Assembly (NCBI GenBank): GCA_963827275.1
Contig: CAWHAA010000005.1
Location: forward strand, 448,001-512,000
Direction: 5' to 3'
DNA from: an uncultured Spirochaetota bacterium
GTDB taxonomy: Bacteria > Spirochaetota > UBA4802 > UBA5550
Length of the DNA: 64,000 nt
Every line of letters starts with the position of its first letter. Position 1 is the stretch's first letter. Below the pieces are notes generated by a model. The model saw nothing but the letters and a program-made list of their open reading frames with translations. It did no database searches and was not told where the DNA came from. This document shows, one piece after another, positions 7,163 through 26,800 of the stretch. A program made the position numbers and the translations under genes.

Positions 7163-7360
7163 ATCATCCCGCCCACTGGTGAAGCTTGCCGACTGGTTCT
7201 GTACCGAGATCGGCAACACCTTCATCATCAAAAAATACCAGCTCGATTTTCTTTTAGCGAACTACCGGGACACGACCCCGGTGCTGTTCAACATGTACGA
7301 CGGCCTGCTGTACAAGAACGGCAGGGGCGCTCTGTTCATCTGCAATTACGCCCTCTTCTC
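7161..7360 (+). pseudogene. Orphan coding-like fragment without RBS or clear start
   Basis: Host-like GC3-rich codons encoding VKLADWFCTEIGNTFIIKKYQLDFLLANYRDTTPVLFNMYDGLLYKNGRG; in-frame TAA at 7155; runs into the convergent M20 gene. Confidence 0.35.
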
Positions 7361-7378
7361 CCCTGCCCGTCCCGCCGG

Positions 7379-8847
7379 TCACATGCCGTCCGCGTTCCGG
7401 ACAAGCTGTATATTGAAGCGTATGATGTCAGCGTAGTTTTCGACCGCGATGCGCTCGTTGGTGCCGTGCACGCGGTCAAGGTCTTCCTGCGCGTAGCGCA
7501 GCGGGCAGAACCTGAATATGCTGTCGCTGATCGGTATGTAGAAGCGCGAATCCGTGGCCGCCACAAACAGGAACGGGCGTGACGATGACGCCGGGGAACA
7601 CCTCCCTGATCGTTTTGCTGCAGCATGCCGTACGCCGGCAGCCCCGTGTCGGTCACCGGGGACGGGTCCCGCCCGTCGGGCAGGGGGGCAATCGTCACCC
7701 GCGCATCATCCACCGTCACCCGCGCCCGGTCTGCCACGCCGCGCATGGTATCGCCCGGAAAGATGCGGAAGTTCACCACCGCGGTCGCCCGCTGCGGGAG
7801 CACGTTGTCCCGCGTGCTCCCCCGGAGCATGGTCGGGGCGATGGTAGTGCGGAGCGCGGCGGACATCGACGGGGACGCGCCCAGCTGCGTGCTGACAACG
7901 GCCCCCAGCAGCCAGAGGTTCGAGAGGGCCAGCCGGTTCCCGAGCCCCATGTGCGGGCCGACCGTCTCGAGCATCTGGCGGGTCACGCCCCGGACCCGCA
8001 GCGGGTACTGGCGATTCTCAAGACGGCTCACCGCGGCGCAGAGTATGCCGACAGCGGTCTCCTCGGGCGGCATGGACGAATGGCCCCCGGCGCCCGCGAC
8101 AGAAAGCTCCAGGGAGAGGTAGCCCTTCTCGGCCGTGCCCACCAGCGCGACCGGCTCCTTCACGCCGGCGACCATGCCGCTGGAGATGAAGCCGCCCTCG
8201 TCCACGACCATCCCGAACCGGACGCCGCGCGATGCGAGCATTGCCGCGATTTTCCCGTTCCCATCGACACCGCGGACCTCCTCCGTGTGCCCCACCGCGA
8301 GGCAGACAGTGCGCCGCGGCCGGAAGCCCCGGGCGAGCAGGTACTCAAACGCCTCGAGCGTGCCCATCAGGCTTGACTTGATGTCCTGCGTGCCCCTGCC
8401 CCAGACATACCCGCCCGCGAGGGCGCCGGAAAAGGGCGGATGCGTCCAGTCCCTGACCGTGCCGGGCTCAACAGGCACCACGTCGCTGTGCGCCATCAAT
8501 AAAACGGGCTTCAACGTCGGGTCGCTCCCCTTCCAGGTGTAGAGGAGGCTGTAGCCGTTAACGGTCTCGCGTTTCAGGCGGGCCCGCACCAGGGGAAAGG
8601 CGCGGTCGAGGTAGGCGTTGAACTCCGCAAACGGCCTCCTGTCGAAGCGCCCCGGGTCCATGCTCGATACTGTCTGATAGCGGACCGCTTCCGCCAGCCG
8701 CTCCAGCGCCCCGCGCATGTTGATGTCCGCTTTCGCAGCGGGAGTTACCGCAAGCTGTTTCGAGGTGAAACGCGCCGTTCGGACGAGCACGATCCCCGCG
8801 AGCAAAATAACGATGGCGGCAATACCGATACTGATTTTTTTCATCAT
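7379..8847 (-). CDS. M20 family peptidase/amidohydrolase (CPS1/PM20D1-like, N-terminal membrane anchor), frameshifted near the 3' end
   Basis: AHSDVVP, WGRGTQDIK, GHTEE, VDEGG, GGHSSMPP; C-terminus ATDSRFY...RVHGTNERI lies in the 7379..7564 frame. Confidence 0.88.
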
Positions 8848-9097: not shown

Positions 9098-9170
9098 AGG
9101 TGACTAGCTCAATTGGTAGAGCAGCGGTCTCCAAAACCGCAGGTTGGGGGTTCGATTCCCTCGTCACCTG
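9098..9170 (+). tRNA. trnW: tRNA-Trp (CCA anticodon); 3' CCA not encoded
   Basis: Acceptor AGGTGAC/GTCACCT, D arm GCTC-AATTGGTA-GAGC, anticodon arm GCGGT-CTCCAAA-ACCGC, T loop GTTCGATTC. Confidence 0.97.
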
Positions 9171-9183
9171 CATGCTAGTACGC

Positions 9184-9216
9184 AAAAAGGCGGGGTTGAA
9201 CGACCCCGCCTTTTTT
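9184..9216. terminator. Bidirectional terminator after tRNA-Trp (left end of islet 1)
   Basis: AAAAAGGCGGGGT-TGAACG-ACCCCGCCTTTTTT. Confidence 0.85.
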
Positions 9217-9249
9217 ATTTGTATACTGAAGCATTAAAATATGGCATAT

Positions 9250-9666
9250 TTATTTTTTCTTGAATGGATTAACAACTCTCAGTTTCTTGTCAATAACCTG
9301 TCCGTCACTCATATCCTCTGAATAGAGAAGTGTGCATTTGTTTTCCAATGCACTGCTGATAATCATGCTGTCATAATATGAAAATCCATATTGATCGACG
9401 ATATTCAATGCTGATTGTATTGTCTTAGGAGTAATATTCTTTACAACGCAAATCCTGGAAAGGAATTCTACGGCAATCTTTATATCACTGACCTTAAGAT
9501 TCAGTTTTCTATATAAGACATTCGATATCTCATTGAGGACCTGAGTGGAAATAACGGGATTCTTCTTCAGCAATTCATTTGCGATTACTTTCTTATAATC
9601 CTCAGCACCAAAGGAATAAATAATCACATTGGAATCGAGAAATATCTTATCTCTGGTTGGCTTCAT
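9250..9666 (-). CDS. PIN-domain (VapC-like) toxin
   Basis: IFLDSNVIIY, ISTQVLNE, FSYYDSMII, LLYSEDM: the acidic PIN residues. Confidence 0.9.
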   Translation of the reverse strand: MKPTRDKIFLDSNVIIYSFGAEDYKKVIANELLKKNPVISTQVLNEISNVLYRKLNLKVSDIKIAVEFLSRICVVKNITPKTIQSALNIVDQYGFSYYDSMIISSALENKCTLLYSEDMSDGQVIDKKLRVVNPFKKK

Positions 9667-9880
9667 CTCTGTTGAATGTGAATCCGCTTAAATCAAACCG
9701 AAAATTATTGAAAAAGGCGTCGATTTCATTTTCTCTAATATTCTTCCTTGCTTTGGCTTTTGCCGCTATTTCTTTATAATGCAAGGTTACTTCAACAGGA
9801 TTGGTTATCTTCTGCTGATATTTCTTAGGAATGACTATAATGCCATTCCTTGTTTTTGTTGAAAATTTTATTGATTTCAT
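9647..9880 (-). CDS. Putative antitoxin (AbrB-like N-terminus)
   Basis: 77 aa, NGIIVIPK, C-terminal FTFNRDEANQR; overlaps the PIN gene start. Confidence 0.75.
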   Translation of the reverse strand: MKSIKFSTKTRNGIIVIPKKYQQKITNPVEVTLHYKEIAAKAKARKNIRENEIDAFFNNFRFDLSGFTFNRDEANQR

Positions 9881-10271
9881 ATTCCCGAATAATTCAAAGT
9901 TCAATTCAATTTATATGTCTATATTTACATTTTTATTGAAAATTGTACAACAAATTTTTCCAATATATTGATATATTATTATGATTTTATCAGCCTTATG
10001 ATTGGTTTATGAATGAAAAATCAATTATTCCTGCCCTTTTCCACCTCCCAGATCATGAAATCGAGTATAATCTCATCAATAACCGGGTTCGAAAATCGTC
10101 CCTGATTGCCTGCAGAACGGGACTTACACTTTTCAGGCAGATGGTTGACCTGGGCCATGACTTTTGGATCGAGCAGGAAGGAAAAGGGCTTGATCCAGTC
10201 GATTCTTACACCGAATATACCATCACAATAAATATCCGAAGTTATTATTTTAAGCCTTACAATTAGGGAAA

Positions 10272-11171
10272 TCAAGAAAGCATTGCGCCGATATTGGAAA
10301 TCCTGAACCCGGAATTTACCTTTCCCCTCGGTATCATGTATCTATAATGATATTTTGGATAACCCACCATGATTCCACCGTAAACGCGCCTGGTTTTATC
10401 GATGCCCAATAAAGTGTTGATAGTTTTCGGTTTCTTTAAAGCCGCCGTAATCATATAGCCTGTCCAACAAGTGCCAAGACCCATTGCGGGCGCTAATAAT
10501 TCCATCCCACGTAAAGCAACTGCGCAGTTGATAGCGCCCAAAGGATTGTGCGCCAGATCATGCGCCAGAATCACAGACGGAGCATTCCGAAAGACCGCGC
10601 CTGGTATTTCATTATTTTCACGCCGATGCCGGAAGATATCATGGTAAGACGTGAGCCAGGAAGTAATTTCCGGACCGAATTTCCCAGCAAGGAGGTCGAA
10701 GATAAGGCCTTTTCCCGTGAAAAATTTCAAACCGGCATTCCAGCATATTTCATAAACTGTTTTTTCAATACTTCTGAGTTGTTCAATATCAGTGATGAGC
10801 ATAAATCGGACAGACTGAGTATTGGCCCCTGTTCCTCCGTAAGCGCCGACTTCAATCAGGTTATTCAAAGATTGTTCATCAACGGCCTTATCCTTGTATG
10901 ACCGAATCGACCGCCGCTGAACAATGTATTCCTTGAGTTTATCAGGCGGGATCTCGATCTTGTTTGATTCAATAAAATCCTTACGCGGCAGTTCCCTATG
11001 ATCAATTGCCGCTGCCGGACAAACAGCAACACAATGCCCACAGGACCTGCATTGATCCGGGTAGCGGACAAAGACCCTGGCACTCATTTTCTCCTTCCCA
11101 ATAACGTAATAGGGGCATACATCATAGCAGGCCAGGCAGTTGGTGCATAGATTTTCATTAATCGTTAACAT
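10272..11171 (-). CDS. Ferredoxin-nitroreductase fusion protein
   Basis: CTNCLACYDVCP, CRSCGHCVAVCP, RRSIRSY, GLGTCW, VGYP; GGAGG RBS before ATG 11171. Confidence 0.9.
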   Translation of the reverse strand: MLTINENLCTNCLACYDVCPYYVIGKEKMSARVFVRYPDQCRSCGHCVAVCPAAAIDHRELPRKDFIESNKIEIPPDKLKEYIVQRRSIRSYKDKAVDEQSLNNLIEVGAYGGTGANTQSVRFMLITDIEQLRSIEKTVYEICWNAGLKFFTGKGLIFDLLAGKFGPEITSWLTSYHDIFRHRRENNEIPGAVFRNAPSVILAHDLAHNPLGAINCAVALRGMELLAPAMGLGTCWTGYMITAALKKPKTINTLLGIDKTRRVYGGIMVGYPKYHYRYMIPRGKVNSGFRISNIGAMLS

Positions 11172-11230
11172 GGTTTTTCCTCCTGCGATCGAATTACGTT
11201 CCCAATGGAGCATGCGTCCCTATTCTGACC

Positions 11231-11620
11231 TCAACTTTTCTTTCTGCCCGGCGAGGCCTTGACGATATCAGGTCGTGAGGCTTCGCCAACATTCATGCGT
11301 CCGGCCCATCGCTCGGCCCAGGCGTTGAGCATCAGAATGATTTTACCCAGTGCGATTCCTTCCTCCGTGATGACGTACCCTTCCTTATCACGCTGAGCAA
11401 TGATCCCGGTCTCGCGTAATTCCGACAAACGCGTATTGAGAACCGTAGGGGAGATGTCCCCACAAAGCTTTTGCAGATCCCGGAAGCTGCTGGCTCCGTT
11501 TTGATTGAGTTCCCAGAGGATCCTCAGCGCCCATCGTCTTCCCAGAAGATCGAGCGCCGCCATGATCGGGCGTCCGGTGTTTGAGCTTCCGAGCTTTGCT
11601 CCCGGTTTTGGCGCAGCCAT
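11231..11620 (-). CDS. HxlR-family winged-helix regulator
   Basis: ALDLLGRRWALRILWEL, FRDLQ, ISPTVLNTRLSELRE; GGAGG RBS. Confidence 0.88.
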   Translation of the reverse strand: MAAPKPGAKLGSSNTGRPIMAALDLLGRRWALRILWELNQNGASSFRDLQKLCGDISPTVLNTRLSELRETGIIAQRDKEGYVITEEGIALGKIILMLNAWAERWAGRMNVGEASRPDIVKASPGRKKS

Positions 11621-11653
11621 AGCACCTCCATGAATTGATACTATTTGTGTAGC

Positions 11654-11691
11654 GCTACTATAATAGTAGCATACTGTCATCAATAAGTCAA
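11654..11691 (-). promoter_or_regulatory. Promoter of hxlR-nitroreductase with palindromic operator over the -10 box
   Basis: Minus strand TTGACT-17 bp-TACTAT; palindrome GCTACTAT-A-ATAGTAGC at 11654-11670. Confidence 0.65.
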
Positions 11692-11803
11692 GCGCGGGAT
11701 ACTATTTTTTAAAATTTCATGCAGGTGCAGAGCAAAAGGTGTGATTGCGGGACAACTGCCGGTGTGGTGTAAATGTTAAAAGCTCTCTGTCCAGTACTCT
11801 TTG

Positions 11804-11879
11804 TTATGTCGCTTTTCTGTACCAAATCATTACATTAAGCAGACAAGTGTCCAATAGTTTAAGTCCCATCTCACCTGCA
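11804..11879. repeat. Islet right-end repeat, copy 1 (att-like; includes antisense 21-codon ORF 11869->11804)
   Basis: Ungapped homology with 17158-17233; last 29 bp identical (CCAATAGTTTAAGTCCCATCTCACCTGCA). Confidence 0.9.
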
Positions 11880-12069
11880 TGCACAGAAAAGGCGGGGTTG
11901 CACGACCCCCGCCTGTATATTTGACCTTACCAACATGTATTCGCACAACTTATTGAACCTTCGCATATCCTGCATTTAGAAAAAATGAAATTTTTAACAA
12001 AATTTTAACGCATAACCGACCCATTCTTACATCACCAAAATAGTCAAATGCTGAAAATAATATTAGTAT

Positions 12070-12441
12070 TTGCATATGGCTATTAGTGAGCACTACTCTG
12101 ATAATAAATTTAGACTATCACATTTTGTGATAACAATTACCATAAGCGGGATAACCGCCAGCGAATATATCTATTATGAAAAAGAAAACATTATACGAGA
12201 GACCACACATCCGACAACAATTGATAAAAATGAGCGATCACTAATAATACAAATGAATTATATGCAAGGTAAAAACATTAGTCTTACATTGGATGATTTT
12301 ATAAACTTTTTCGAAAACCTGCCGGAATGGATCATGACCAGATATTATCAATTATATGATCACCACGATAATAGTAAATATATCAGTAAAATCAATTTAT
12401 TGAGTAAATATTCAACAATGAACATAGAGATGCGTAAATAA
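12070..12441 (+). CDS. Hypothetical protein (start uncertain)
   Basis: 123-codon ORF in AT-rich DNA, stop 1 bp before the ktrB start; no motif recognised. Confidence 0.4.
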   Translation: MHMAISEHYSDNKFRLSHFVITITISGITASEYIYYEKENIIRETTHPTTIDKNERSLIIQMNYMQGKNISLTLDDFINFFENLPEWIMTRYYQLYDHHDNSKYISKINLLSKYSTMNIEMRK

Positions 12442-12442
12442 C

Positions 12443-13789
12443 ATGAAGAAAAAGCATGTTACCCATAAAACATCTCCAATAACACTACTATCATCAGGAT
12501 ATGCAATTCTCATAGTGATAAGCGCCGGCATTCTCTCACTACCGTTTTCTTCGACAAAATCTGTTTTTACACCCTATCTTGATTCACTTTTTACCGCGAC
12601 ATCGGCGATTACAACAACCGGATTGATAGTATTTGATACGGGAACATATTATAATATGTTCGGGCAGATTATTATTCTATTATTATTTCAGATTGGTGGT
12701 CTGGGATATATGCTCTTTGTAATTCTGATATTTATTGTCTTTCAACAAAGAATATCCATACAAAGCAATCTCATGCTTCAGGAATCGATTAAAAAACCCC
12801 TCAAGGTAGATATTCTATACTTTTTAAAAATGATTATCCTGTTTACGATATTTATTGAAATTATTGGGGCAATAATTTTATCGCTTCTATTGTATCAATA
12901 TTTTCCCTTAAGCCATTCAATATATTCAGGAATATTTCATTCCATATCCGCTTTTAATACCGCTGGTTTTTCGATTTATCAGGATAGTTTCTGCAAATTC
13001 AGCGATAATATTTCCCTGAATATAGCCATAATTTGCATCAGCACTCTCGGCTCTCTTGGATTTTTTGTACTCTTTGATATTTATAAATATTACATGGAAA
13101 GATCAAAAGGAATAAAGAATATAAAATTATCAGTCCATTCACGGATAATACTTATTTGTACTATAACAATCCTGATAGCGGGGTCATTTCTTGTATTCAT
13201 TATTGAATATTACAGCAACAGTGCTCCGCTCAAATTCAAACTGTTATCCTCATTATTCCAGGTTTCCTCCGCGTCAACAACAACGGGTTTCAATTCAATT
13301 GATATAGGAAAGATGAATGAAAGCACACTGTTTTTAATTGTAATAATGATGTTCATCGGTGCCGGTTCAGGAGGAACAGGCGGAGGAATAAAAATGACCA
13401 CCCTGGTTGTCACGCTATTATCGGTTTATGCCATAATACGGAATAAGAATACCGTGAATATTTTTAAAAGAAGGTTGCCTTTTGAAATCATCAGAAACTC
13501 ATTCGCCATTTTCATATTATCAATATCATGGGTAACACTCATAACATATATTCTATCAATTACGGAAAACAAGGGATTTGTCAGTTTATTATTCGAGACA
13601 GGATCTGCGTTGGGGACTGTAGGATTATCTACCGGTATAACAGCCGATTTAAGCAGCATTGGTAAAGTATTGATTACTCTATCCATGTTTATCGGACGTA
13701 TAGGTCCCCTGGGTATTGGAATATCATTGCTTACAAGCGCCGAAGAACCCGGTTACAAATATTCCACTACTGACGTCTTTATTGGGTGA
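12443..13789 (+). CDS. ktrB: KtrB/TrkH-type K+ uptake membrane subunit
   Basis: Four pore-loop glycine motifs TTTGL, NTAGF, TTTGF, GTVGLSTG; MFIG..GGTGGGIK; MFIGRIG. Confidence 0.9.
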   Translation: MKKKHVTHKTSPITLLSSGYAILIVISAGILSLPFSSTKSVFTPYLDSLFTATSAITTTGLIVFDTGTYYNMFGQIIILLLFQIGGLGYMLFVILIFIVFQQRISIQSNLMLQESIKKPLKVDILYFLKMIILFTIFIEIIGAIILSLLLYQYFPLSHSIYSGIFHSISAFNTAGFSIYQDSFCKFSDNISLNIAIICISTLGSLGFFVLFDIYKYYMERSKGIKNIKLSVHSRIILICTITILIAGSFLVFIIEYYSNSAPLKFKLLSSLFQVSSASTTTGFNSIDIGKMNESTLFLIVIMMFIGAGSGGTGGGIKMTTLVVTLLSVYAIIRNKNTVNIFKRRLPFEIIRNSFAIFILSISWVTLITYILSITENKGFVSLLFETGSALGTVGLSTGITADLSSIGKVLITLSMFIGRIGPLGIGISLLTSAEEPGYKYSTTDVFIG

Positions 13790-13798
13790 GGATTATTC

Positions 13799-14452
13799 AT
13801 GAAACAGTTTTTAATTATTGGACTCGGGAATTTTGGGTATAATCTTGCCTGTGAACTATTTAAAATAGGCAATGAAGTAATCGTCGTTGACAGCAATGAA
13901 ACGCTGATCAATAAGATAAAGGAAAATGTTTCACACGCGATAATCGCAGACGCAAAGCAGGTTGATAATATCAAGGATTTCATCGGCAAAAAAACCGATG
14001 CCGTTATTTTAAACCTGGGCGAATCACTCGAAGAGACCGTTTTGGTAACACTTGCGGTGAAAAACCTTGGGGCAAAAAACATAATCGTGAAAGTGACAAA
14101 CGAGGAACACGGTATGATCGCAAAGAAACTCGGCGCAACGGAAATAATTATCCCGGAAAGGGATTATGCCAAACAAATGTCAAAAAAATTGACAAGCGAG
14201 AATTTACTTGATTATCTTCCTCTGTCGCCTGAATATGGGATCTATGAGATAGCCGTGCCGGATCATTTTACCGGTAAAAGGTTAAATGAATTGAATATTC
14301 GGAAAAAATATAATGTAAATGTAGTCGCGATAAAGGACATATTAAAAGACATTACTATTATCAATCCGGAACCTGATTTTAAATTTATACCGGATATGGT
14401 ACTATATTTATTAGGTAAAAGTGATGATATCATCAATTTGAAAAAAATGTAG
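13799..14452 (+). CDS. ktrA: KtrA/TrkA-type RCK regulatory subunit
   Basis: IIGLGNFG Rossmann motif, IIPE, RCK_C GKRLNELNIRKKYNVNVVAI. Confidence 0.9.
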   Translation: MKQFLIIGLGNFGYNLACELFKIGNEVIVVDSNETLINKIKENVSHAIIADAKQVDNIKDFIGKKTDAVILNLGESLEETVLVTLAVKNLGAKNIIVKVTNEEHGMIAKKLGATEIIIPERDYAKQMSKKLTSENLLDYLPLSPEYGIYEIAVPDHFTGKRLNELNIRKKYNVNVVAIKDILKDITIINPEPDFKFIPDMVLYLLGKSDDIINLKKM

Positions 14453-14492
14453 CTCCATAGAAAAAAATAATAACATTAAATGGAGTAAATCA

Positions 14493-16436
14493 TTGAAGGC
14501 TTCACCAGGTTTTATAGTTGCCATAAGCCCAAGCCCCTATTCCCAGCATCTGATCAAATGGACGCAGAAAACCGCCGTTGAGCAAAATCTCCCCTGGGTG
14601 GCGGTATATATTCAAACCAGCAAAGAACTTACGAATGAAGAGAATACCCTGCTTAAAAAAAACATACAGCTGGTCAAAGACCTTGGAGGGGAATTATTAT
14701 CGTCAATGGATGACAATGTCCCGCTGGCAATCATGCGCATAGCAAGGCAGCGTACTATTTCACACATAGTAGTAGGTAAACCGCTTGGTTATAAATCTTC
14801 TGGAATAATGAACAAAACGAATATTATTGACACACTAATAAGTATTAGCGGCGAAATTGATATATTTGTCATTTCCGAACAGAGTGTCAGACCGGAAAAG
14901 AGAAAAAGTGTATCTGTTTTTATTCGTAATTTATTATCAGGAAACAAGATTGAATATTTCCATGTTATTTTATGGCTGCTCATCATCATTATAATCAATC
15001 TGTATTTAATCAGATATATAAGCTATCTGTCGGTTGGTTTTATCTTTCTGGCCGCCGTTGCCGTTGTCTCCTCATATTACAAAAAAGGCCCTGTATTATT
15101 ATTCGCCAGTATCAGTGCAGTATTATGGAATTTTTTATTTATCAAACCACGATTTACCATTTATATAGACCATCTCGAAGATCTCTTTATGTTTCTTATG
15201 TATTTTATTACAGCATTTATTATTGGCAATCTTACAACAAAGCTACGCCTCAAAGAAATATTCCTGAGAAAGAGGGAAAAGAATCTTGAAGAACTGTACA
15301 TGATGGGTAAAATTCTCAATGAGTCCAACAATCTGGATGAGATTTTAGATAAATCAACAGCTTTGCTCAGAAATATTTTTAATGCTAAAATTTCGGTATT
15401 TCTAATACCTGATAACGATACTCTTTCATTACTGCCGCGCAGGGGAAACGACTTTACCTTTCCGGAGAATGAACGAGAAGCAATTCTCTATTGTTTTGAA
15501 AACAAAAAACCTTCAGGTAAAAACACCAGTATCATGAGTGGATCGAAATACCATTATATCCCCCTGCACAATCACAGCATTCAGGCGGGCGTTTTGGCCA
15601 TTGATTATAATGACAAAAGCGGATTATCAATTGAACAGGAAAACCTGTTGTTTGCCCTTGTGTCTCAAATAACATCTGCCCTGGAGAGAGACGAGTTTAT
15701 TAAAACACAGCAAAAAATAAAATTAGCGGAAGAATCAGAACGATTATACCAGATATTGCTCAATTCAGTATCGCATGAACTTCGGACGCCCATCACAACA
15801 ATATCAACATCGGCCAATGGCCTGGTAGATGAAAAACTTGCTCAAAATGAGGAGGTACGAAAAATTTTCGCGACCGATATTATTGAATCATCGGACCGTT
15901 TAAATCGAATAGTCGACAATCTTCTTGGTTCATTGCGGATTAAAAGTGAAAAGATTATACTCAATCTTGAATGGTATGATATATCCGAACTGGCGAGTCA
16001 TGTTCAGGGGAAACTTCACAATCTACTTAAGAATCATAATTTTATCGTAAAAATAGACAATTCAATACCCACGTTAAAATTTGATTTCACGCTTATGGAG
16101 CAACTATTGACAAACCTGATTTACAATGCCATACTATATACGCCGCAGGGCAGCGAGATACAATTGAATATTGAGGCGGATCAAAATATGATATACATAT
16201 CAGTTATTGATAATGGACCTGGAATACCCGACGATGAAAAAGATAAAGTATTTCAGAAGTTCTATCGGGTAAAATCAATTAAAAAAGGCGGCCTTGGGCT
16301 TGGACTATCTATTTGCAAAGAAATCGCCGAAATCCACAAGGGCTCAATTAACGTTACGACAGGTTCAGCCGGAGGAGCGCATTTTACTGTCACATTGCCC
16401 CTGCAACAAAGCACTGTACATGGTGAATTACAATGA
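14493..16436 (+). CDS. kdpD: KdpD-like sensor histidine kinase lacking the N-terminal KdpD domain
   Basis: TTG start; Usp-like domain, 4 TM helices (WNFLFIKPRFT), GAF-like region, SVSHELRTP, DNGPGI, GLGLGLSIC. Confidence 0.82.
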   Translation: MKASPGFIVAISPSPYSQHLIKWTQKTAVEQNLPWVAVYIQTSKELTNEENTLLKKNIQLVKDLGGELLSSMDDNVPLAIMRIARQRTISHIVVGKPLGYKSSGIMNKTNIIDTLISISGEIDIFVISEQSVRPEKRKSVSVFIRNLLSGNKIEYFHVILWLLIIIIINLYLIRYISYLSVGFIFLAAVAVVSSYYKKGPVLLFASISAVLWNFLFIKPRFTIYIDHLEDLFMFLMYFITAFIIGNLTTKLRLKEIFLRKREKNLEELYMMGKILNESNNLDEILDKSTALLRNIFNAKISVFLIPDNDTLSLLPRRGNDFTFPENEREAILYCFENKKPSGKNTSIMSGSKYHYIPLHNHSIQAGVLAIDYNDKSGLSIEQENLLFALVSQITSALERDEFIKTQQKIKLAEESERLYQILLNSVSHELRTPITTISTSANGLVDEKLAQNEEVRKIFATDIIESSDRLNRIVDNLLGSLRIKSEKIILNLEWYDISELASHVQGKLHNLLKNHNFIVKIDNSIPTLKFDFTLMEQLLTNLIYNAILYTPQGSEIQLNIEADQNMIYISVIDNGPGIPDDEKDKVFQKFYRVKSIKKGGLGLGLSICKEIAEIHKGSINVTTGSAGGAHFTVTLPLQQSTVHGELQ

Positions 16437-17125
16437 AAGAAGGCGGTCTCATTCTTGTTGTTGACGACGAAACTCAAATCCGGAGATTTTTAAAAATCAG
16501 CCTGGAATCAAATGGTTATAAAGTTATTGAAGCTGACACCGGTGAAGAAGGAATAACCCAAACCGCCACAATTACTCCTGATATAATAATACTCGATCTC
16601 GGCCTGCCTGACATGGATGGACTTGATTTTGTAAAAAGAGTCCGGGAGTGGAGCACCATTCCAATTATAATATTAACGGTGAAGGATTCAGAAAAAGACA
16701 AAGTGATTCTTCTTGATAACGGCGCTGACGATTATCTGACCAAACCATTCAGCCTGAATGAACTTATGGCAAGAATACGGGTCGCATTCAGGCACAAACA
16801 CTCTGACAAGGGCACTCAGGTTTTCAAATCGGGAAAAATATCTATCGATTTTGATAAACGCATCGTAAAGGTAAATGATGAAAAGATAAAACTTACCCCG
16901 AAGGAATATGCTGTTTTAACCCTGCTTGCGAGAAACGCCGGTAAAGTTCTGACCCAGAATTATATACTTAAAGAATTATGGGGACCGTATTATCAAGAAG
17001 AATCACAATATTTAAGAATCTATATAATGCAAATCAGAAAGAAAATTGAAGATAATCCAAGTAATCCGACAATTATCATAACTGAACCGGGGATTGGTTA
17101 TAGATTTGTTGCTGACTATGATTGA
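16433..17125 (+). CDS. kdpE: KdpE-like OmpR-family response regulator
   Basis: VVDDETQIRRFL, LDLGLPDMDG, GADDYLTKPF, YLRIYIMQIRKKIEDNPSNP..IITEPGIGYRF; ATGA overlap with kdpD. Confidence 0.88.
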   Translation: MKEGGLILVVDDETQIRRFLKISLESNGYKVIEADTGEEGITQTATITPDIIILDLGLPDMDGLDFVKRVREWSTIPIIILTVKDSEKDKVILLDNGADDYLTKPFSLNELMARIRVAFRHKHSDKGTQVFKSGKISIDFDKRIVKVNDEKIKLTPKEYAVLTLLARNAGKVLTQNYILKELWGPYYQEESQYLRIYIMQIRKKIEDNPSNPTIIITEPGIGYRFVADYD

Positions 17126-17157
17126 TTTCATCATTTGGATAATCAGCAAACTCAATA

Positions 17158-17233
17158 TCAAGCCGCTTTCCTGTACCAGATAATGACATTCAGCAACGAA
17201 ATGCCCAATAGTTTAAGTCCCATCTCACCTGCA
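17158..17233. repeat. Islet right-end repeat, copy 2 (att-like; includes antisense 21-codon ORF 17223->17158)
   Basis: Homologous to 11804-11879; ends in TCACCTGCA like tRNA-Trp. Confidence 0.9.
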
Positions 17234-17241
17234 GACGAAAC

Positions 17242-17267
17242 CAGGAGGCGGGAGTTCCCGCCTCCTG
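17242..17267. terminator. GC hairpin downstream of katG (possibly the pre-insertion tRNA terminator)
   Basis: CAGGAGGCGGGA-GT-TCCCGCCTCCTG. Confidence 0.7.
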
Positions 17268-17299
17268 TCATTTTCAGAAAGATTGTCGACCCGCGCATG

Positions 17300-19489
<2,190 letters not shown>

Positions 19490-19960
19490 TTATTCCTTTA
19501 CCTGCGTTGTCAAAAAAACCTGGATCGACATCTGTTCTATCTGGCTCTGCAGCTCCTCGATGCCGTCCATGTGCGCGTCTTCGTCATTCAGTATCTGCTG
19601 GAGAAAATCGCGGGTCGCGAAATCCTTTACCTCGCCGGCAAGAATGATGGCCTCATTATATGCTTTTATGGCCCCCTCCTCAGCGGCGTGGTCGTTGGCC
19701 AGCTGCTTGTCCACCTTGTCCCCGATCATGATCTTGTTCAGCAGGCTGACCGTCGGCGTGCCTTCAAGGAACAGGATGCGGCCGATGAGCTTCTCCGCGT
19801 GCTTCATCTCGTCGATGGCGCGCTTCTCGAAATGCTTGTGGAGCTTTTCGTACCCCCAGTCGTCGCACATCTCCGAATGGACCATGTACTGGTTGATCGC
19901 CGTCAGCTCGTCAGCCAGCAGCGTATTGAGAGTAGTTAATAATTTTTCGTTGCCTTTCAT
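19490..19960 (-). CDS. bfr: Bacterioferritin
   Basis: MKGNEK..LADELTAINQY.VH, DEMKHA (haem-ligand Met), RILFLEG, DEDAH; GGGAGGGAG RBS. Confidence 0.93.
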   Translation of the reverse strand: MKGNEKLLTTLNTLLADELTAINQYMVHSEMCDDWGYEKLHKHFEKRAIDEMKHAEKLIGRILFLEGTPTVSLLNKIMIGDKVDKQLANDHAAEEGAIKAYNEAIILAGEVKDFATRDFLQQILNDEDAHMDGIEELQSQIEQMSIQVFLTTQVKE

Positions 19961-20019
19961 CACTCCCTCCCATTGATTGGTTTTAATTATAATAAGTCCG
20001 GATGGCCGTCGCCGAATGG

Positions 20020-20418
20020 TCAGCCTTTTTTTCTCTTCATGCATTTATCGCACGTGCCGTGAAATTGGATCGTATGGCCCGAAATGCTGTGCCGCGACAT
20101 TCCACGGGCCTTTTTCATTATGATATCCAGGGGCTGCATGGGAAAATCGGTCACGGTTTTACAGGTGTCACATATAAAGTGATAATGCAATCCCGGGATG
20201 GCATCGTAATGCTCAATACCGTCGTTGAACTCCCTGCGGGTTACGCGCCCCTCCTCAACCAGAATGTTGATATTGCGATACACGTTGCCGAGGCTGATGG
20301 ACGGCATCTCCTTTTTCAGGGCCTCGTATACGCTGCGCGCGGTCGGATGGTCCATCCGGGACCGTATGAACTCATAGATCCTTTCGCGCTGTATGCTTTT
20401 GCGACGGACGGATTTCAT
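20020..20418 (-). CDS. perR: Fur-family regulator, probably PerR-like
   Basis: HPTA..VY, ISLGNVYRN, HYHFICDTC, C-terminal CDKC; first gene of the fur-bfr-katG unit. Confidence 0.8.
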   Translation of the reverse strand: MKSVRRKSIQRERIYEFIRSRMDHPTARSVYEALKKEMPSISLGNVYRNINILVEEGRVTRREFNDGIEHYDAIPGLHYHFICDTCKTVTDFPMQPLDIIMKKARGMSRHSISGHTIQFHGTCDKCMKRKKG

Positions 20419-20852: not shown

Positions 20853-23800
20853 CTATGCGGTTACGCGTCCAGATGCAGCGCCTATTCTCACTTCCGCAGA
20901 GTGTTCCCGGCGATCGTCAACAAGGGGGATGGCGGTGCTCGCTTATTGGAACGCCGTCGAGGGTTATGCCTGCAACGCCGCCGGCCGTCGTACGCACTAT
21001 GGTGATATGGTAGATCGTTTCCCGGTACCGGTAGTGGATCGTGAACGAGTCCCAATCATCGGGAAGGCACGGTTCAAAACGCAGCTTGTCCGTTTCAAGC
21101 CGGAGTCCCAGCAGTGATTCCAGAACAAGCCGGTACATCCATCCGGCCGATCCCGTGTACCATGTCCATCCGCCGCGACCGATATGGGGTGAAAGCGCGT
21201 ATACGTCGGCTGCGACAACATACGGTTCCACCTTGTAGGTCGCGACCCCCTGCGGGGTCGTGGCATGGTTCACCGGATTGATCATGGCCGTCAGTTCCCA
21301 TGCGCGCTGGCTGTCGCCTGATTTGGCGAAGGCCATTGCGGCCCATATCGCGGCATGAGTGTACTGGCCGCCGTTCTCCCTCACGCCGGGGACGTACCCC
21401 TTTATGTAGCCGGGGTTCAAATCCGATGCGTCGAGCGGCGGGTCCAGGAGCTGTATCAGCGCGTGGTCCCTGCGGACAAGGCGTTCATCCACCGCTTCCA
21501 TCGCCATGTGCGAGCGGCCGGCGTCCCCGGCCCCGGACAAAACCGACCAGCTTTGCGCGACCGAATCAATCTGGCATTCAGGATTGGCCGCCGAGCCGAG
21601 AGGCGACCCGTCGTCGAAATATGCGCGGCAATACCATCCGCCGTCCCAGGCGTTCTGCTCGATTTTTTGACGCAGCATGGACGCTTCGTTCCGGCAATGT
21701 TCGACGAAGGCCGTGTCGCCCTTCACGTTCGCGATTGCCGTGAACCCCATGAGCACCTCGTAAAAAAAGAATCCCAGCCATACGCTTTCGCCTTTTCCCT
21801 GTTCGCCGACGGTATTCATGCCGTCGTTCCAGTCACCCGAACCGATGAGCGGCAGGCCATGCGCGCCGTAGCGTTCGCCTCTTAAAATGGCGCGCACGCA
21901 GTGCTCGTAGAGGCTGGCCTCCTGCCGTGAGCGGTTCGGAAGATCGTAATAGGAGTCTTCGTCCGCATTTACCTGGCGGCCCTCGAGAAAGGCGACCGTT
22001 TCATCCAGCACGCCGGTGTCCCCGGTGGAGAGGACGTACCGGGCAGTCGCCATCGGCAGCCAGAGAAAGTCGTCCGAACAATGCGTGCGCACGCCCCGGC
22101 CCGTGGGAGGATGCCACCAGTGCTGGACATCGCCCTCCGTGAACTGGCGGGACGCGCACAACAGGATGTGTTCGCGGACAAGGCGCGGTTCCGCATGAAT
22201 GAGCGCCATGACGTCCTGCAGCTGGTCACGGAAACCGAAGGCCCCGCCGGACTGGTAATATCCGCTCCGGGCCCACATGCGGCACGCGAGGGTCTGGTAC
22301 AGGAGCCATCCGTTCGTCAGTACATCCAGGGAATGATCGGGCGTTTCCACGTGCACCGCGCCAAGGGTGCGGTTCCAGTATTGCCACACCCCTTCAAGGG
22401 CGCCCCGCGCCGCATACGCTCCCCGGAAGCGTCGCACCAGGCTGCCGGCATCATTGGCATCACGGCCGGCGCCGAGCCTGAAGATGATCTCGCGCTCCTG
22501 CCCGTCAGCCAGATCGAAAGGGACCTGTATGGCGGCGCAGGGATCCAGGGCGGCGCCTACCCTGCCGGACAGGCCCGACTCTGGTCATGGCGGCAGGGTT
22601 CCGGAGCGTGCCGTTGCGGCCGATGAACTCGGTGCGGTCGCCGCACAGGGACCGGGTCGTATCGTCCGTATCAAAGAAAGCGACCCGCCCGGCAAAATCC
22701 ATGCTGTAGCCGTTACGCGCCAGGAGAGCGCCGCTCGCCGGGTCCAGTTCCGTTACCACGTGCATCGCCGATTTGGAACGCAGGTCTCCCAGCACCCATT
22801 CCGCGTACCCCGTGGCCGACAGCCGCCGCGGACGGCCGGAAATGTTTTTTATTTTTAACACCGTAAACTTGACGCTTGCGTCCGGGGCCACGTACACCCA
22901 TGCCTCCGAGCTGATGCCGCGCTCGGTATGTTCGAATACGCTGTATCCGAATCCGTGCCGGGTCACATAGGGCGTCGCTCCGCGGCTCGGAAGCGGCATG
23001 GGAGACCAGTAGTGGCCGCGCTCTTCATCGCGGATGTAAAAGGCTTCCCCGCCTGAATCGCTTACCGGGTCGTTATGCCAGGGCGTGAGGCGGAATTCAT
23101 GGGCGTTCTCCGCCCAGGTATAGGCAAGGCCGCTCTCCGATACGACCGTTCCGAAATGCGGATTCGCCAGCACGTTCACCCAGGGCGCGGGGGTCACCTG
23201 CCCGTGCGCGGTCGTTATGATATACTCCCGTCCGTCGGGGGTGAATCCGCCGTAGCCGTTGAAGAACATGAGATCGGGACGGGGCTGCGCGGCCACTGCC
23301 GGGGGTTCGGGGCGGATGCTCCTGGCCGGCATGAGCTGCGGAACGGGTTTTCTCGCGCCGCCGCGGCGGCTGATCTGGTCCGCCAGCGTCCCCCGCCTGT
23401 CGGTTATTATGACGCGGGCGGCGGTCTGGATCAGTATGCGGTCCTCGTCGGATATCTGGTCGGAAGACCGCACGAAAATGCCCCCGGGCCGATCGATCAC
23501 ATTGGTTTCCGCCCCGGTGGCGAGGAGACCCATGATCTGGTCGTGCAGAAGCTGCCGGTACCCGGCATGGTCCTCGTTCCAGATCACCAGGTCGACCGCG
23601 AGCCCTTTCAGGTGCCAGTAATTGTGGGCCTGTATGAGCTGCCGCGCCAGGTTGATATTGGCCGGATCTTCAATCTGCAGCAGAACGATGGGCATATCGC
23701 CGGATATCGAGTAGCCCCACAGACCGGACTGACCGCGGCGGTTCCGCGCGATGATGCCGGGATCGGCGCGCAGGGAAGAGTGCGCGTAGATGATGGAGCC

Positions 23801-26800
23801 TGCGAGGCGCCCGTACAGCTGCGCGTCGGCCTCGGTCGCGTTGAGCTGCCGGAGCACCACCTGGCTGTGGGTCCATGCCAGATCGAAGACGCGGTCCGCG
23901 AGGCGCCGGTCCTGGTATTTCCCGATGAGGCTTCGGCCGCGGAGCGGTCCTCGCCGATGCCGGAAACGATATCGATCGTCGCCGACTCCTCCGGAGCGAG
24001 CGTTATCCGGTACCGGATCGCGACAACAGGGTCCAGCACCGAGCCCTCGCTTCCCGAAAGCGCCCCGGGTTCGTTCATGGCGCGGGGAGCGGCCGCGGTG
24101 TTCCAGCGTCCGATGAACCGCGCCCGGTCCGTCTCATAGGATATTCCTCCGGGATCCGCCCCGTACGCGGTCATCAGGTGAAAAAAACATGGCGTTTTTT
24201 CGGTGAGGGAGCGCGGACGGCGATGGCAGAGTATCGCATGCCGCTCCCGGTCGATTTCGGTCTGGACAAAAAGATTGCTGAAAGCCGGATGCAGGGCGTC
24301 CGCGGCAGCCGGCGCGATGACCACTTCCGCGTAGCTGGTTACATCGATCTCCCTGCGGGTCCGGGTCCGGTTGGTGATGCGGGTACGCCGCAGTTCGATG
24401 TCATCCTCGGGGGAAACGACGATCGTCGTATGCGCATCGATGCCGTGGTCCCGCCGGCGGAATTCGGCGCGCCCCTCGGAGAAAATCACTTCGTAATATT
24501 TCGGCTGCGCGAGCGTCGGTTGATACGCGGTCGACCAGAATTCGCCGCTTGATACGTCCCTGATGTAGCAGAACGAGCCCCAGTTGTCGCAGGTCCCGTC
24601 TTCGCGCCAGCGCGTGAGTGCGATGTCGTTCCAGCGGCTGTAACCCCCTCCCGCGTTCGTGACCATCACGTTGTATCTGCCGTTCGACAGCAGCTGCACC
24701 TCCGGCATCGGGGTGTCGGGGCCGTTGAATACGCGCACCGGCATGTCCGGGCCGGTGAAATTAGCGTGAATTTCGGGAAGCTCGGTGGTATGCGAATAAA
24801 ATGCCGTGGCCTTCGGGATCCGCTCTTGAAGAAGCAATGCCGTCGCCTGGAAGATCGGTTCCGCGTTGAATCGCTTCTGCATCGGACGGTCAAGGATCAC
24901 ATAGGCCAGCGCGAGAAAGCTCATGCCCTCATGGTGCGCCATGAAGGACCGGACAACGGCGTTCGATTCACCGTGCGGAAGCCTGGACGCGGTGTAGTCG
25001 ATCGCCTCATATAAGCCATACCTCCCCGCAAATCCCTCGGCCGCAAGCCGCTGAAGATTCACGCACGCCTCCTCGGGCGCCACCATGAGCGCCAGCACCG
25101 AGGCATAGGGCGCGATGACACAATCGTCGGCGAGTCCGCGCTTGAGCCCCAGGCCGGGCACGCCAAATGCCCGGTACTGGTAGTTGAGACTGGCATCGAT
25201 AAGGAAGTAGCCGGATTCCGACATGCCCCACGGTACGCCGCGCTGCCTCCCGTATTCGATCTGCCTGGCCACGGCCGCCTTATAGGTCTGGTCGAGCAGC
25301 GAGTATTCGTACGTCGGCATCACGAGAAGCGGCATCAGGTACTCGAACATCGATCCGCTCCATGACAGGAGCACCGGCCTACCGCCGGCCGTGGTGAGCT
25401 GCCGCCCGAGGGCGAACCAGTTTTCCTGTGGCAGCTGTCCCTGCGCTATCGCCACAAAACTGCACAGCCGCGCTTCCGACGCCAGCAGATCGTAGTAGCT
25501 CGCGTCCCTGCGGCGATCATTGACATTGTAGCCGATGGCCAGGAGGTGACGTTCCCTGTCGTAAAGGAAATCATATTCCATTCGGGCGAGCTCGCCCGCG
25601 TGCATGCGCCAGGCGTTCAATAATCGCAATCCTCTCGGCGGCGCGGTTGCCCGCCTCCCTGATGAGCCGCCGCATCTCATCATGCCCCTCGTTCTCAACG
25701 GGCGTCGCATCGGCGCCCGGCCTTTGATCGGATGCCGGCATGAGTTTCTCCATGCGGGAAAGCCAGTTGTCGCAGCGTCGGGATTTCGTCGATATCCGGA
25801 AACTCGCGGAGCAATTCGGATAAAACCGGCGATCCCGCCCACGGGGCGAGAAGGTCCAACTCGTCACGAGGCGGCCTTGCATTGCCGGGCCAGCGCCTGC
25901 GCCCACCACGATACCTGGTTATCGGGTCCGGAAAGTACGGCATCGGCCATGGCGGCGGCGGAGGCCGCAAGGCGATCAAGGCACAGCCGCGCGGACACGA
26001 GCGTTGCCGGCTTGTCACGGCAGGCGGCATCTATCTCCAGCTGGATATCCGCGAGCCGGGCCGGCGGCGCTCCCCCGGCCGTTGTTTCCACGAGGACACG
26101 GAGCGTGTCCCGGAGACCGTCAAATAACCGCGGTCCTACTATCTTTTTATCGGGAATTTCAAGCAGGCCCGACCGCAGTGTCAGCAGATAGGCCGCGAGG
26201 TTACCGCTGTCAACCGTTGAAATGTAGTTGGGCGGCAGCGGCTCCAGGGATTGTGTATCGTACCAGTTATAGAAATGTCCCCGGTACCGCTCCAGACTGT
26301 CCAGCGTGTCAAGCGTACGCGCCGTGCGATCGATACATTCACCCGCCGTCACGTAGCCGAAATCATAGGCGGTCAAATTCGCGAGGAGGGCAAGACCAAT
26401 GTTGGTCGGCGATGTCCGATGGGCGACAGCGGCGACCGGATGCTCCTGATAGTTATCGGGCGGCAGCCAGTTATCTTCCGGGCCGACAAATGTCTCGAAG
26501 AACGCCCAGATTTTACGGGAACAATTAAGGAGGAAGTCGGTCTGCCCGGCTGAAAGGCGCTTTTCCCTGCGGTCGAACGGCAGGCTGAGCCACCAGGCGA
26601 CAGCCGGTGAGGCAAACCAGAGTCCCAGTACCGGCAAGGCAATCAAAACAGAGGCCGGCGCGTACAGCGCGAGAACTACCGCCGCGGCTGCCGCTGAGAC
26701 CGGGGCGATCCACATGGTCAGATAGGAACCGGCGAGGCTTGTGCGGCTGTTGCGCTTCGAGTCGGCGGCCGTATTCCACTCGAGCAGACGTTTATGAGTG

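Follow-up and report, generated by a model that had tools for sequence, protein, structure and literature searches.

Recombinase-less cassettes at tRNA-Trp in an uncultured Spirochaetota bacterium have right ends that read as tails of a large serine recombinase gene

How does a row of DNA units that encode no working recombinase come to stand behind a tRNA gene? Contig CAWHAA010000005.1 of an uncultured Spirochaetota bacterium poses this question in a 64,000-nucleotide stretch (positions 448,001-512,000, hereafter the window), where an array at about 9,098-20,418 begins at a gene for tRNA-Trp. A preliminary description had proposed two integrase-free islets with homologous ends, stacked in tandem at this tRNA, carrying AT-rich cargo and mobilized in trans. 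We compared the array with the remainder of its host genome (4.13 Mb, 92% complete; label G000), with 64 genomes of the family that include 16 other members of the genus (labels G0xx denote genomes, Lxxx and Pxxxx stretches and proteins) and with metagenome contigs. The array very probably originates from a large serine recombinase (LSR). As read from sequence, the conserved right end of the cassettes is the C-terminal coding tail of the LSR gene itself and appears to be under coding constraint.

The core TCACCTGCA is present at 9164-9172, 11871-11879 and 17225-17233, in agreement with the three copies described before. This 9-mer has 43 copies on both strands of the 4.13-Mb genome, and the expectation is 0.04 per 8.1 kb on one strand. 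The 76 bp leading up to cores 2 and 3 were rightly called alike: they agree at 63 of 76 positions, the final 29 without a mismatch (repeat family D1: 84 nt, 81% identity), and a profile of this pre-core arm, searched genome-wide as had been proposed, matches at these two sites alone. The sequences that follow the core were also said to be alike, and the hairpins at 9185-9221 and 11887-11923 are indeed 84% alike across 37 nt, but hairpins of this GGCGGGG type are dispersed genome-wide, so their likeness counts for little by itself. A fourth, degenerate core, TTGCCTGCA, at 10106-10114 belongs to a right arm of another type ('Q', 10029-10114, as opposed to the 'P' arms of cores 2 and 3). What had been taken as islet 1 is therefore two units, and the array has three delimited units (1a, 1b and 2) rather than two islets. 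Their GC content is 33%, 47% and 36%, respectively, and 61% upstream; AT-richness thus holds for units 1a and 2 but only mildly for unit 1b. There is no working recombinase gene, as claimed, yet an LSR gene has left its 3' stump at the start of unit 1b (likeness at 10099-10254: 62% over 63 amino acids, E 1.5e-17), and the sequence from 17234, formerly read as plain flank, is another such stump (17234-17293).

An integrase-bearing element with the same ends, which the preliminary description had suggested looking for, exists in relatives. An LSR gene lies directly behind tRNA-Trp, open in two genomes (G012 and G007), interrupted by one TGA in G011 and represented by a 59% relative in G044. The protein, which we call the helper, consists of Resolvase, Recombinase and Zn-ribbon domains, a set that is present in the helper proteins of L049 and L050, the window having stumps only. 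Its catalytic serine 34 is invariant in 117 aligned homologues and its best match in the PDB is the A118 integrase. Homologues with E <= 1e-10 occur in 19 of the 64 genomes, with 22 of 29 loci beside tRNA-Trp, -Asn, -His or -Arg. The gene faces the tRNA and its open reading frame (ORF) passes through the 9-bp core into the antisense strand of the tRNA. The attachment site attP lies inside the LSR gene; once integrated, the gene takes its last codons from the antisense strand of the tRNA, and its P' end carries the P arm's inverted repeat, centred on a CT. Another LSR lineage found beside tRNA-Trp (P0013; 34% identical to the enzyme of L131 and 56-57% to the LSRs at tRNA-Asn) has a Q'-type end, which is the likely reason for the resemblance of Q arms to tRNA-Asn arms. 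Among 28 chosen ORFs scanned, the G011 helper stretch has the LSR, an HTH_17 protein, an archaeo-eukaryotic primase (AEP)-helicase and nuclease fragments; 36 chosen ORFs of the LSR island at tRNA-Trp of G044 (L087) include Prim-Pol, D5 and a CBASS-like (cyclic oligonucleotide-based antiphage signalling) set with a DncV-like cyclase and a SAVED-HNH protein. The annotated helper stretches showed neither a relaxase nor a conjugation gene.

Read in the LSR frame, the P arms encode a tail of 24 residues: 22 of 29 distinct arms stop at codon 25, and stops further on occur at 7.9% per codon. The minus strand of the Q arm of unit 1a likewise encodes an LSR-type tail (AGNQGRFSNPVIDEIILDFMIW...), with which the stump of unit 1b is in frame (84-residue ORF, 10021-10275). 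The ratio of nonsynonymous to synonymous polymorphism (pN/pS) is 0.44 over the 29 P arms and 0.50 over 15 Q arms, and the synonymous share exceeds 298 (P) and 300 (Q) of 300 column shuffles, counts that overstate the case because the arms are kin. The tail is also found on recombinase genes: of the LSRs that read through a P.P' joint into the P tail, intact or nearly so, L131 has one as a 552-residue ORF, L126 has a piece at a contig edge, and P0151 is a third. A C-terminal Ala-Ala ends 25 of 121 full-length LSR homologues, compared with 6 of 1315 long ORFs of the host genome; a rough pattern places tRNA-like peptides at the ends of 32 of the 121. In mycobacteriophage repressors, according to the available text of PMC9934374, a C-terminal Ala-Ala constitutes an ssrA-like tag that integration removes. 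By analogy, we predict that the P tail, often ending in Ala-Ala, acts as a protease tag on the excised form of the enzyme. We found no description of an LSR tail degron in the literature covered, which leaves out most subscription papers.

DNA matching the junctions is present in 14 of the 64 family genomes and 11 of the 16 other genus members, in some as the tRNA-proximal end only, and a metagenome scan added 28 further stretches, several of them redundant; the metagenomes with the region are mainly from bioreactors, sediment and manure. We compared tRNA-Trp stretches in 13 relatives. Eight of them have P or Q arms, 1-10 each and in varying order (G011, 10; G016, 7; G010 and G008, 6; G006 and G021, 2; G015 and G001, 1), as counted with arm profiles whose training set included part of these arms. 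Naming each joint by its left half (tRNA, P or Q) and its right half (P', P'-derived, Q', T or other), we distinguish 74 joints, with 13 tRNA, 45 P and 16 Q left halves; the three left halves combine mostly freely with the right halves, and the switch falls at the core. The commonest joint is P.T (23 by script, one of which is by eye another hairpin), and 10 of 13 tRNA-Trp genes have a T end behind them. Of 19 long T ends, 84-95% have AGAAC at positions 8-12. The idea that T ends are what remains of a sister LSR was rejected, as only 5 of 39 continue with TTTTCAG-like LSR sequence and no such LSR was found.

Whole cassettes recur as well. One is 84% identical over 910/917 bp between G008 (u2) and G001 (u1), different species in which it holds different array positions; another is 85% identical over 776/778 bp between G011 (u6) and G010 (u3), and its left 664 bp stand directly behind tRNA-Trp in another family. 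The toxin module of unit 1a, encoding a PIN-domain protein, is also found in the G011 and G008 arrays (77-83% identity). One joint outside a tRNA array (G008 C4) is found in a 1.7-kb duplicate adjoining repeated ends like those of insertion sequences. The proposal that non-autonomous units of one family, alike in their ends and varied in their cargo, form arrays at tRNA-Trp is thus borne out across the genus: relatives neither keep the region as conserved syntenic DNA without an empty site nor scatter its repeats without a link to tRNAs or island borders. The empty site that had been predicted, tRNA-Trp followed directly by the sequence from 17234 and katG, did not appear in any of the 13 stretches. 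The katG-bfr-perR segment is itself an array unit in four relatives; because it is flanked by joints in G011 and stands behind joints in G016, G007 and G015, we regard it as probably an older fourth unit whose right end has been lost here, and no right arm for it was found in the window. In four genomes (G013, G019, G037 and G055) the 18-38 kb covered show a T end but no arm, and no common downstream gene marks a native empty site.

A further array of the host genome lies at tRNA-Asn, where six homologues of the Q arm are spaced 835-1021 bp apart (C6:307876-312300 and C10:1-2600; L150, L151), on two contig ends whose joining we assume. The cargo comprises MqsR/A, MazF/E (twice, 768 of 847 columns alike), HigB/A, HepT/nucleotidyltransferase and one unassigned pair, and cargo-less mini-units of about 90 bp lie between some cassettes. 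Arms of this kind occur in 9 of the 16 other genus genomes; LSRs stand at tRNA-Asn in G016, G009, G007 and G014, and a tRNA-Asn arm forms the far end of the LSR islands in G016 and G014. No array at a further tRNA of the host genome was evident from a count of 8-mers, which would miss diverged cores. Next to the Asn array, in C6:307700-308310, the 5' part of tRNA-Asn is partially repeated in tandem ahead of the tRNA-Asn gene, with a hairpin inserted, and a GIY-YIG nuclease gene lies between tRNA-Asn and another partial copy; this arrangement could be a separate element or an assembly artefact. The contig end that directly follows the array (C6:312300-313143) has about 73% GC, unlike the genome, and is possibly chimeric.

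Variation between strains bears on whether the units move. Of the 24 metagenome runs listed with the region we compared the contigs of four; contigs cannot reveal circles. In run X2, one contig of the same species joins 11850 to 17205 and skips 5354 bp, exactly islet 2, at a depth of 34 that resembles the flanks; strain variation at the repeat is thereby documented. Since the crossover falls within 29 identical bases, site-specific and homologous loss cannot be told apart. In the same run a Q arm precedes unit 1a and a different left end follows the tRNA, an arrangement best read as one more Q-ended cassette ahead of unit 1a. Unit 1a itself has no differences in 903 bp, and there are 26 in 2143 bp upstream. 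Joints shaped like those of circles are 10108 to 9167 (X2, depth 32.6) and 11870 to 9164 (X7, depth 2.7). Run X5 has joints 9166 to 10109 and 11909 to 9227, which, like that of X7, possibly come from other members of the genus; islet 2 is uncovered there and no contig bridges it. The joint 17233 to 11880 was found in none of the contigs of the four runs. The circular junctions that had been predicted are therefore not shown in contigs, the sole candidate, 11870 to 9164, being of low depth and of a type common in the genus. Contig C1 of G016, considered as a circle, proved to duplicate part of the C2 array at 95% identity without ending at a joint and is no evidence for one.

What is observed, then, is the identity of the LSR, attP within its gene, the mixing of half-sites aligned at the core, the recurrence of cassettes and one exact presence and absence. 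From these we favour, as a fairly likely course of events, accretion driven by the LSR, with co-excision of neighbouring cassettes and later departure of the helper alone. A helper island would insert at the tRNA, excise together with adjoining cassettes and integrate elsewhere; in the next host it would excise alone and the cassettes would stay behind. T ends would act as B', so that each P.T or Q.T joint would be an attR, and the helper's attL could pair with any downstream joint. The last cassette carried along would supply the recombinase tail, which would explain why the tails of recombinase-less cassettes stay in frame. Decayed helpers would likely yield new cassettes (unit 1b and the katG unit), as would deletions that fuse the left end of one unit to the right end of a further one. 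Helpers stand ahead of the arrays in G011 and behind a unit in L131. Several points weigh against this account. The host genome has no Resolvase or Recombinase match, stumps alone; viral contigs contain no LSR and no P or Q joint, and in a phage collection the best LSR matches reach only 24-26%. Recombination, excision or a circle was not observed, the data being contigs. The B' role of T ends leans on the conservation of AGAAC. Four of 19 P arms in a separate count, all four absent from the 29-arm tail set, have a 1-nt tRNA-like insertion that truncates the tail, including the right end of the G011 helper itself; 3 of the 29 have internal stops; and Ala-Ala ends 12 of 29 P tails and no Q or tRNA-Asn (N) tail. 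Cassette ends are not fixed to cargo, since the right end of the PIN cassette is Q here and P in G011, and in G008 there is no arm. Site geometry is also ambiguous: the available text of PMC3783163 has the motif of the zinc-ribbon domain (ZD) at a distance from the centre that is 5 bp greater in attP than in attB. With motif and centre chosen by eye, TCGAAC of the tRNA T-loop lies 5 bp further out in Q and N arms than in the tRNA (18 versus 13; partner arms 16-17), in line with that rule. P and P' have it at position 13, the tRNA register, so the Trp LSR shows no evident attP/attB directionality of the canonical sort.

The same facts can be read otherwise. Autonomous LSR islands might have integrated serially, decayed and been fused by deletion, leaving an immobile remnant whose strain differences reflect RecA recombination. 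We regard this as rather unlikely, although the LSR stumps at the start of unit 1b, the katG unit and the first unit of G006 are what it would leave, as are the fusion of the PIN module to a piece of a helper's primase gene in the first G008 unit, the different right ends of the PIN cassette in three species and the frameshifted and stop-bearing arms; the unit lost in X2 is internal, and a RecA deletion across its 29-bp perfect repeat explains the loss equally well. Decay does not readily account for small cassettes that turn up, both ends included, at array positions that vary between species, in one case in another family, for halves that switch at the core in 74 joints, for tails mostly in frame with a fixed stop, for a unit 1a identical between strains whose flanks are about 1% apart or for toxin-antitoxin units of about 850-1000 bp at tRNA-Asn, too regular for random decay. 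Alternatively, an LSR encoded elsewhere could excise single cassettes as circles and reinsert them at the tRNA with the target regenerated, as in integrons. The precise loss of islet 2, the circle-shaped joints of X2 and X7, the T end after 10 of 13 tRNA-Trp genes and the register common to B, P and P', which could relax directionality, would suit such a process. It would, however, require attR x attR and attR x attB reactions that serine integrases do not normally perform, going by the available text of PMC3783163. Moreover, the X2 joint has chromosome-level depth and is better read as the extra cassette, the X7 joint is of a common type, 17233 to 11880 is missing from the contigs and selection on the tails is left unexplained; we consider it improbable. 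Of the original idea of mobilization in trans, the family of non-autonomous units stands, but the anatomy of the joints is no less compatible with an adjacent helper that acts in cis. The 3' ends of tRNA genes are the usual targets of tyrosine integrases, and a host enzyme of the phage or integron type could in principle use the 9-bp core. The host genome has four PF00589 matches, one of them XerA/IntI-like, but all lie far from both arrays, two are XerD/XerC-like and one is broken; with arms made of LSR coding sequence and LSRs at this very core in relatives, a tyrosine recombinase is hardly credible as the builder. The XerA/IntI-like gene (C5:39542-40744, L002) scores 214 bits against an integron-integrase cut-off of 265 and lies at the start of an AT-rich stretch; the broken tyrosine integrase is part of an AT-rich island of 25-39% GC (C5:290000-316000, L004). 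Returning to accretion by a departing helper, a more tentative extension casts tRNA-Trp and -Asn in the role of attI of an integron-like capture platform, where transient helpers of at least two LSR lineages would load and shuffle toxin-antitoxin and stress cassettes of about 1 kb. Right ends would be spare C-termini, the cassette that closes the circle would set the Ala-Ala tag, and only the tRNA-adjacent helper would go untagged.

The features of the array are collected in Table 1. Among crude ORFs of at least 150 residues, 54 of 73 face the tRNA, islet 2 and G010 being reversed; a promoter scan was uninformative (38 sites versus 29.6 +/- 6.1 in shuffles). The KdpD/KdpE-like pair of islet 2 is joined to a Trk/Ktr transporter (12443-17125) and not to KdpFABC, and G014 (L144) has a copy of this set at 85-92% with an internal deletion, ending in a partial P arm. 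Just before the first P arm, at 11785-11805, is a motif of about 21 bp (CTCTGTCCAG..CT(C/T)TTTGT) that also occurs at five other intergenic sites (C2:262806, C5:308519, C5:705766, C8:76482 and C10:454482), possibly a dispersed repeat or a regulator site. Outside the array, an M20 peptidase gene (7336-8847) and a large glycoside-phosphorylase-like gene (20917-25842) look frameshifted; these may be assembly errors of the window, because runs differ from it by 1-base indels at 7578 and 7620 (three runs) and at 20937 (four).

Table 1. Annotated features of the tRNA-Trp array, in window coordinates
Feature	Position	Strand	Remarks
tRNA-Trp(CCA)	9098..9172 (gene 9098-9171)	+	3' end carries the core; target half-site (B)
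Unit 1a, 942 bp	9173-10114		PIN toxin and partner
Unit 1a left end, 'T' type	9173..9215	+	short spacer, then terminator-like hairpin
PIN-domain toxin	9250-9666	-	paired with small upstream partner
Small partner of PIN toxin	9647-9904	-	no Pfam match; putative antitoxin
Unit 1a right end, 'Q' arm	10029..10114	+	degenerate core; homologous to tRNA-Asn array arms
Unit 1b, 1765 bp	10115-11879		recombinase stump, nitroreductase, HxlR
Unit 1b left end (P'), LSR gene 3' stump	10115..10275	-	11 codons lost
4Fe-4S ferredoxin-nitroreductase fusion	10272..11213	-	
HxlR-family regulator	11231..11683	-	
Unit 1b right end, 'P' arm	11804..11879	-	detached LSR C-terminal tail AGEMGLKLLDTCLLNVMIWYRKAT* and core 11871-11879
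Unit 2 (islet 2), 5354 bp	11880-17233		Trk/Ktr and KdpDE-like genes
Islet 2 left end, 'T' type	11880..11923	+	imperfect hairpin
123-residue ORF	12070..12441	+	unmatched in Pfam, NCBIfam and atlas; possibly not a gene
TrkH/KtrB-type and TrkA/KtrA-type proteins	12443-13789, 13799-14452	+	potassium uptake pair
KdpD-like kinase	14493-16436	+	lacks N-terminal ~250 profile positions
KdpE-like regulator	16433-17125	+	
Islet 2 right end, 'P' arm	17158..17233	-	tail AGEMGLKLLGISLLNVIIWYRKAA* and core 17225-17233
Second LSR 3' stump	17234..17295	-	hairpin retained, inverted repeat gone; left end of probable older fourth unit
katG, bacterioferritin, PerR/Fur	17300..20418	-	probable fourth unit

Parts of this architecture have been described before. 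In Dehalococcoides, islands stand in tandem behind a structural-RNA gene, ssrA (McMurdie et al. 2011, PMC3146451). The available text of that paper describes DsiB, a Ccr-like LSR of about 540 residues, encoded on the reverse strand with a 3' end that extends over attL, and 15 islands without an integrase that are read as cis-mobilizable; it leaves undecided whether a complete DsiB exists only on the circle or when a neighbouring island stands in front. The present arrays share the reverse-strand LSR overlapping attL and the tandem units with att ends and no intact integrase. They differ in target, tRNA-Trp (Asn, His and Arg for sister LSRs) instead of ssrA, and the 8-mer of the tmRNA 3' end has no copy within 40 kb downstream in the host genome. 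Of the six-gene Dehalococcoides module (DsiB, DsiA, RecF, ParB, Mom and a polymerase-like protein), no DsiA, RecF, ParB or Mom was seen among the chosen ORFs of the G011 helper. Units here go down to toxin-antitoxin cassettes of about 0.8-1 kb, ends from two LSR lineages, 34% identical, are present at one core, and the detached tail, compared with DsiB, is under apparent coding constraint and in frame on intact genes. The array works like the Dehalococcoides islands, the closest described system, but is no member of them, having another target and another module.

Other systems share single traits. In the accretion of integrative and conjugative or integrative and mobilizable elements (ICE, IME), cis-mobilizable elements (CIMEs) with att ends and neither integrase nor transfer genes stack with autonomous ones (PMC3146451, available text). 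Our units resemble CIMEs as att-ended units without an integrase, but most internal joints are P.T, attR-like, and not P.P'. The examples from Streptococcus thermophilus have tyrosine integrases and conjugation modules. Composites of the staphylococcal cassette chromosome, driven by the LSRs CcrA/B/C, have internal att sites and recombinase-less segments; here the helper LSR reaches 52-75 bits against Ccr cut-offs of 700-900 and is not Ccr, the target is a tRNA and attP lies inside the recombinase gene. An attP inside a tyrosine integrase gene is that of IntP of phage Mx8. Integrons also have rows of toxin-antitoxin and stress cassettes, but no IntI adjoins either array and attC sites were not seen, no attC model having been applied. 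Integration-dependent immunity of mycobacteriophages (PMC9934374, available text) likewise involves attP in a gene, a swap of the C-terminus and, as in many arms here, an Ala-Ala remnant; the split gene is a repressor there and a serine recombinase here. Tycheposons integrate serially at tRNAs, with transient helpers that leave material behind, and 910 of 937 use tyrosine recombinases (bioRxiv 10.1101/2020.12.28.424599, available text); the arrays share the serial tRNA integration and the transient helpers and differ in using a serine recombinase. The literature covered, which leaves out subscription papers and the supplements of PMC3146451, yielded no account of miniature cassette arrays built by LSRs at tRNAs. 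The outline of the architecture is already known; the gain is in mechanism and reach and not in a new class.

The question raised in the available text of PMC3146451, whether an LSR that overlaps attL is complete on the circle alone or also behind a neighbour, becomes testable here. Both natural forms of the enzyme are at hand, with the tRNA-coded tail (L049) and with the P tail (L131), as are half-sites of three left and four right types. For strictly anaerobic, uncultured Spirochaetota of digesters and sediments, such arrays would constitute a route to gain and lose oxidative-stress, potassium and toxin-antitoxin modules.

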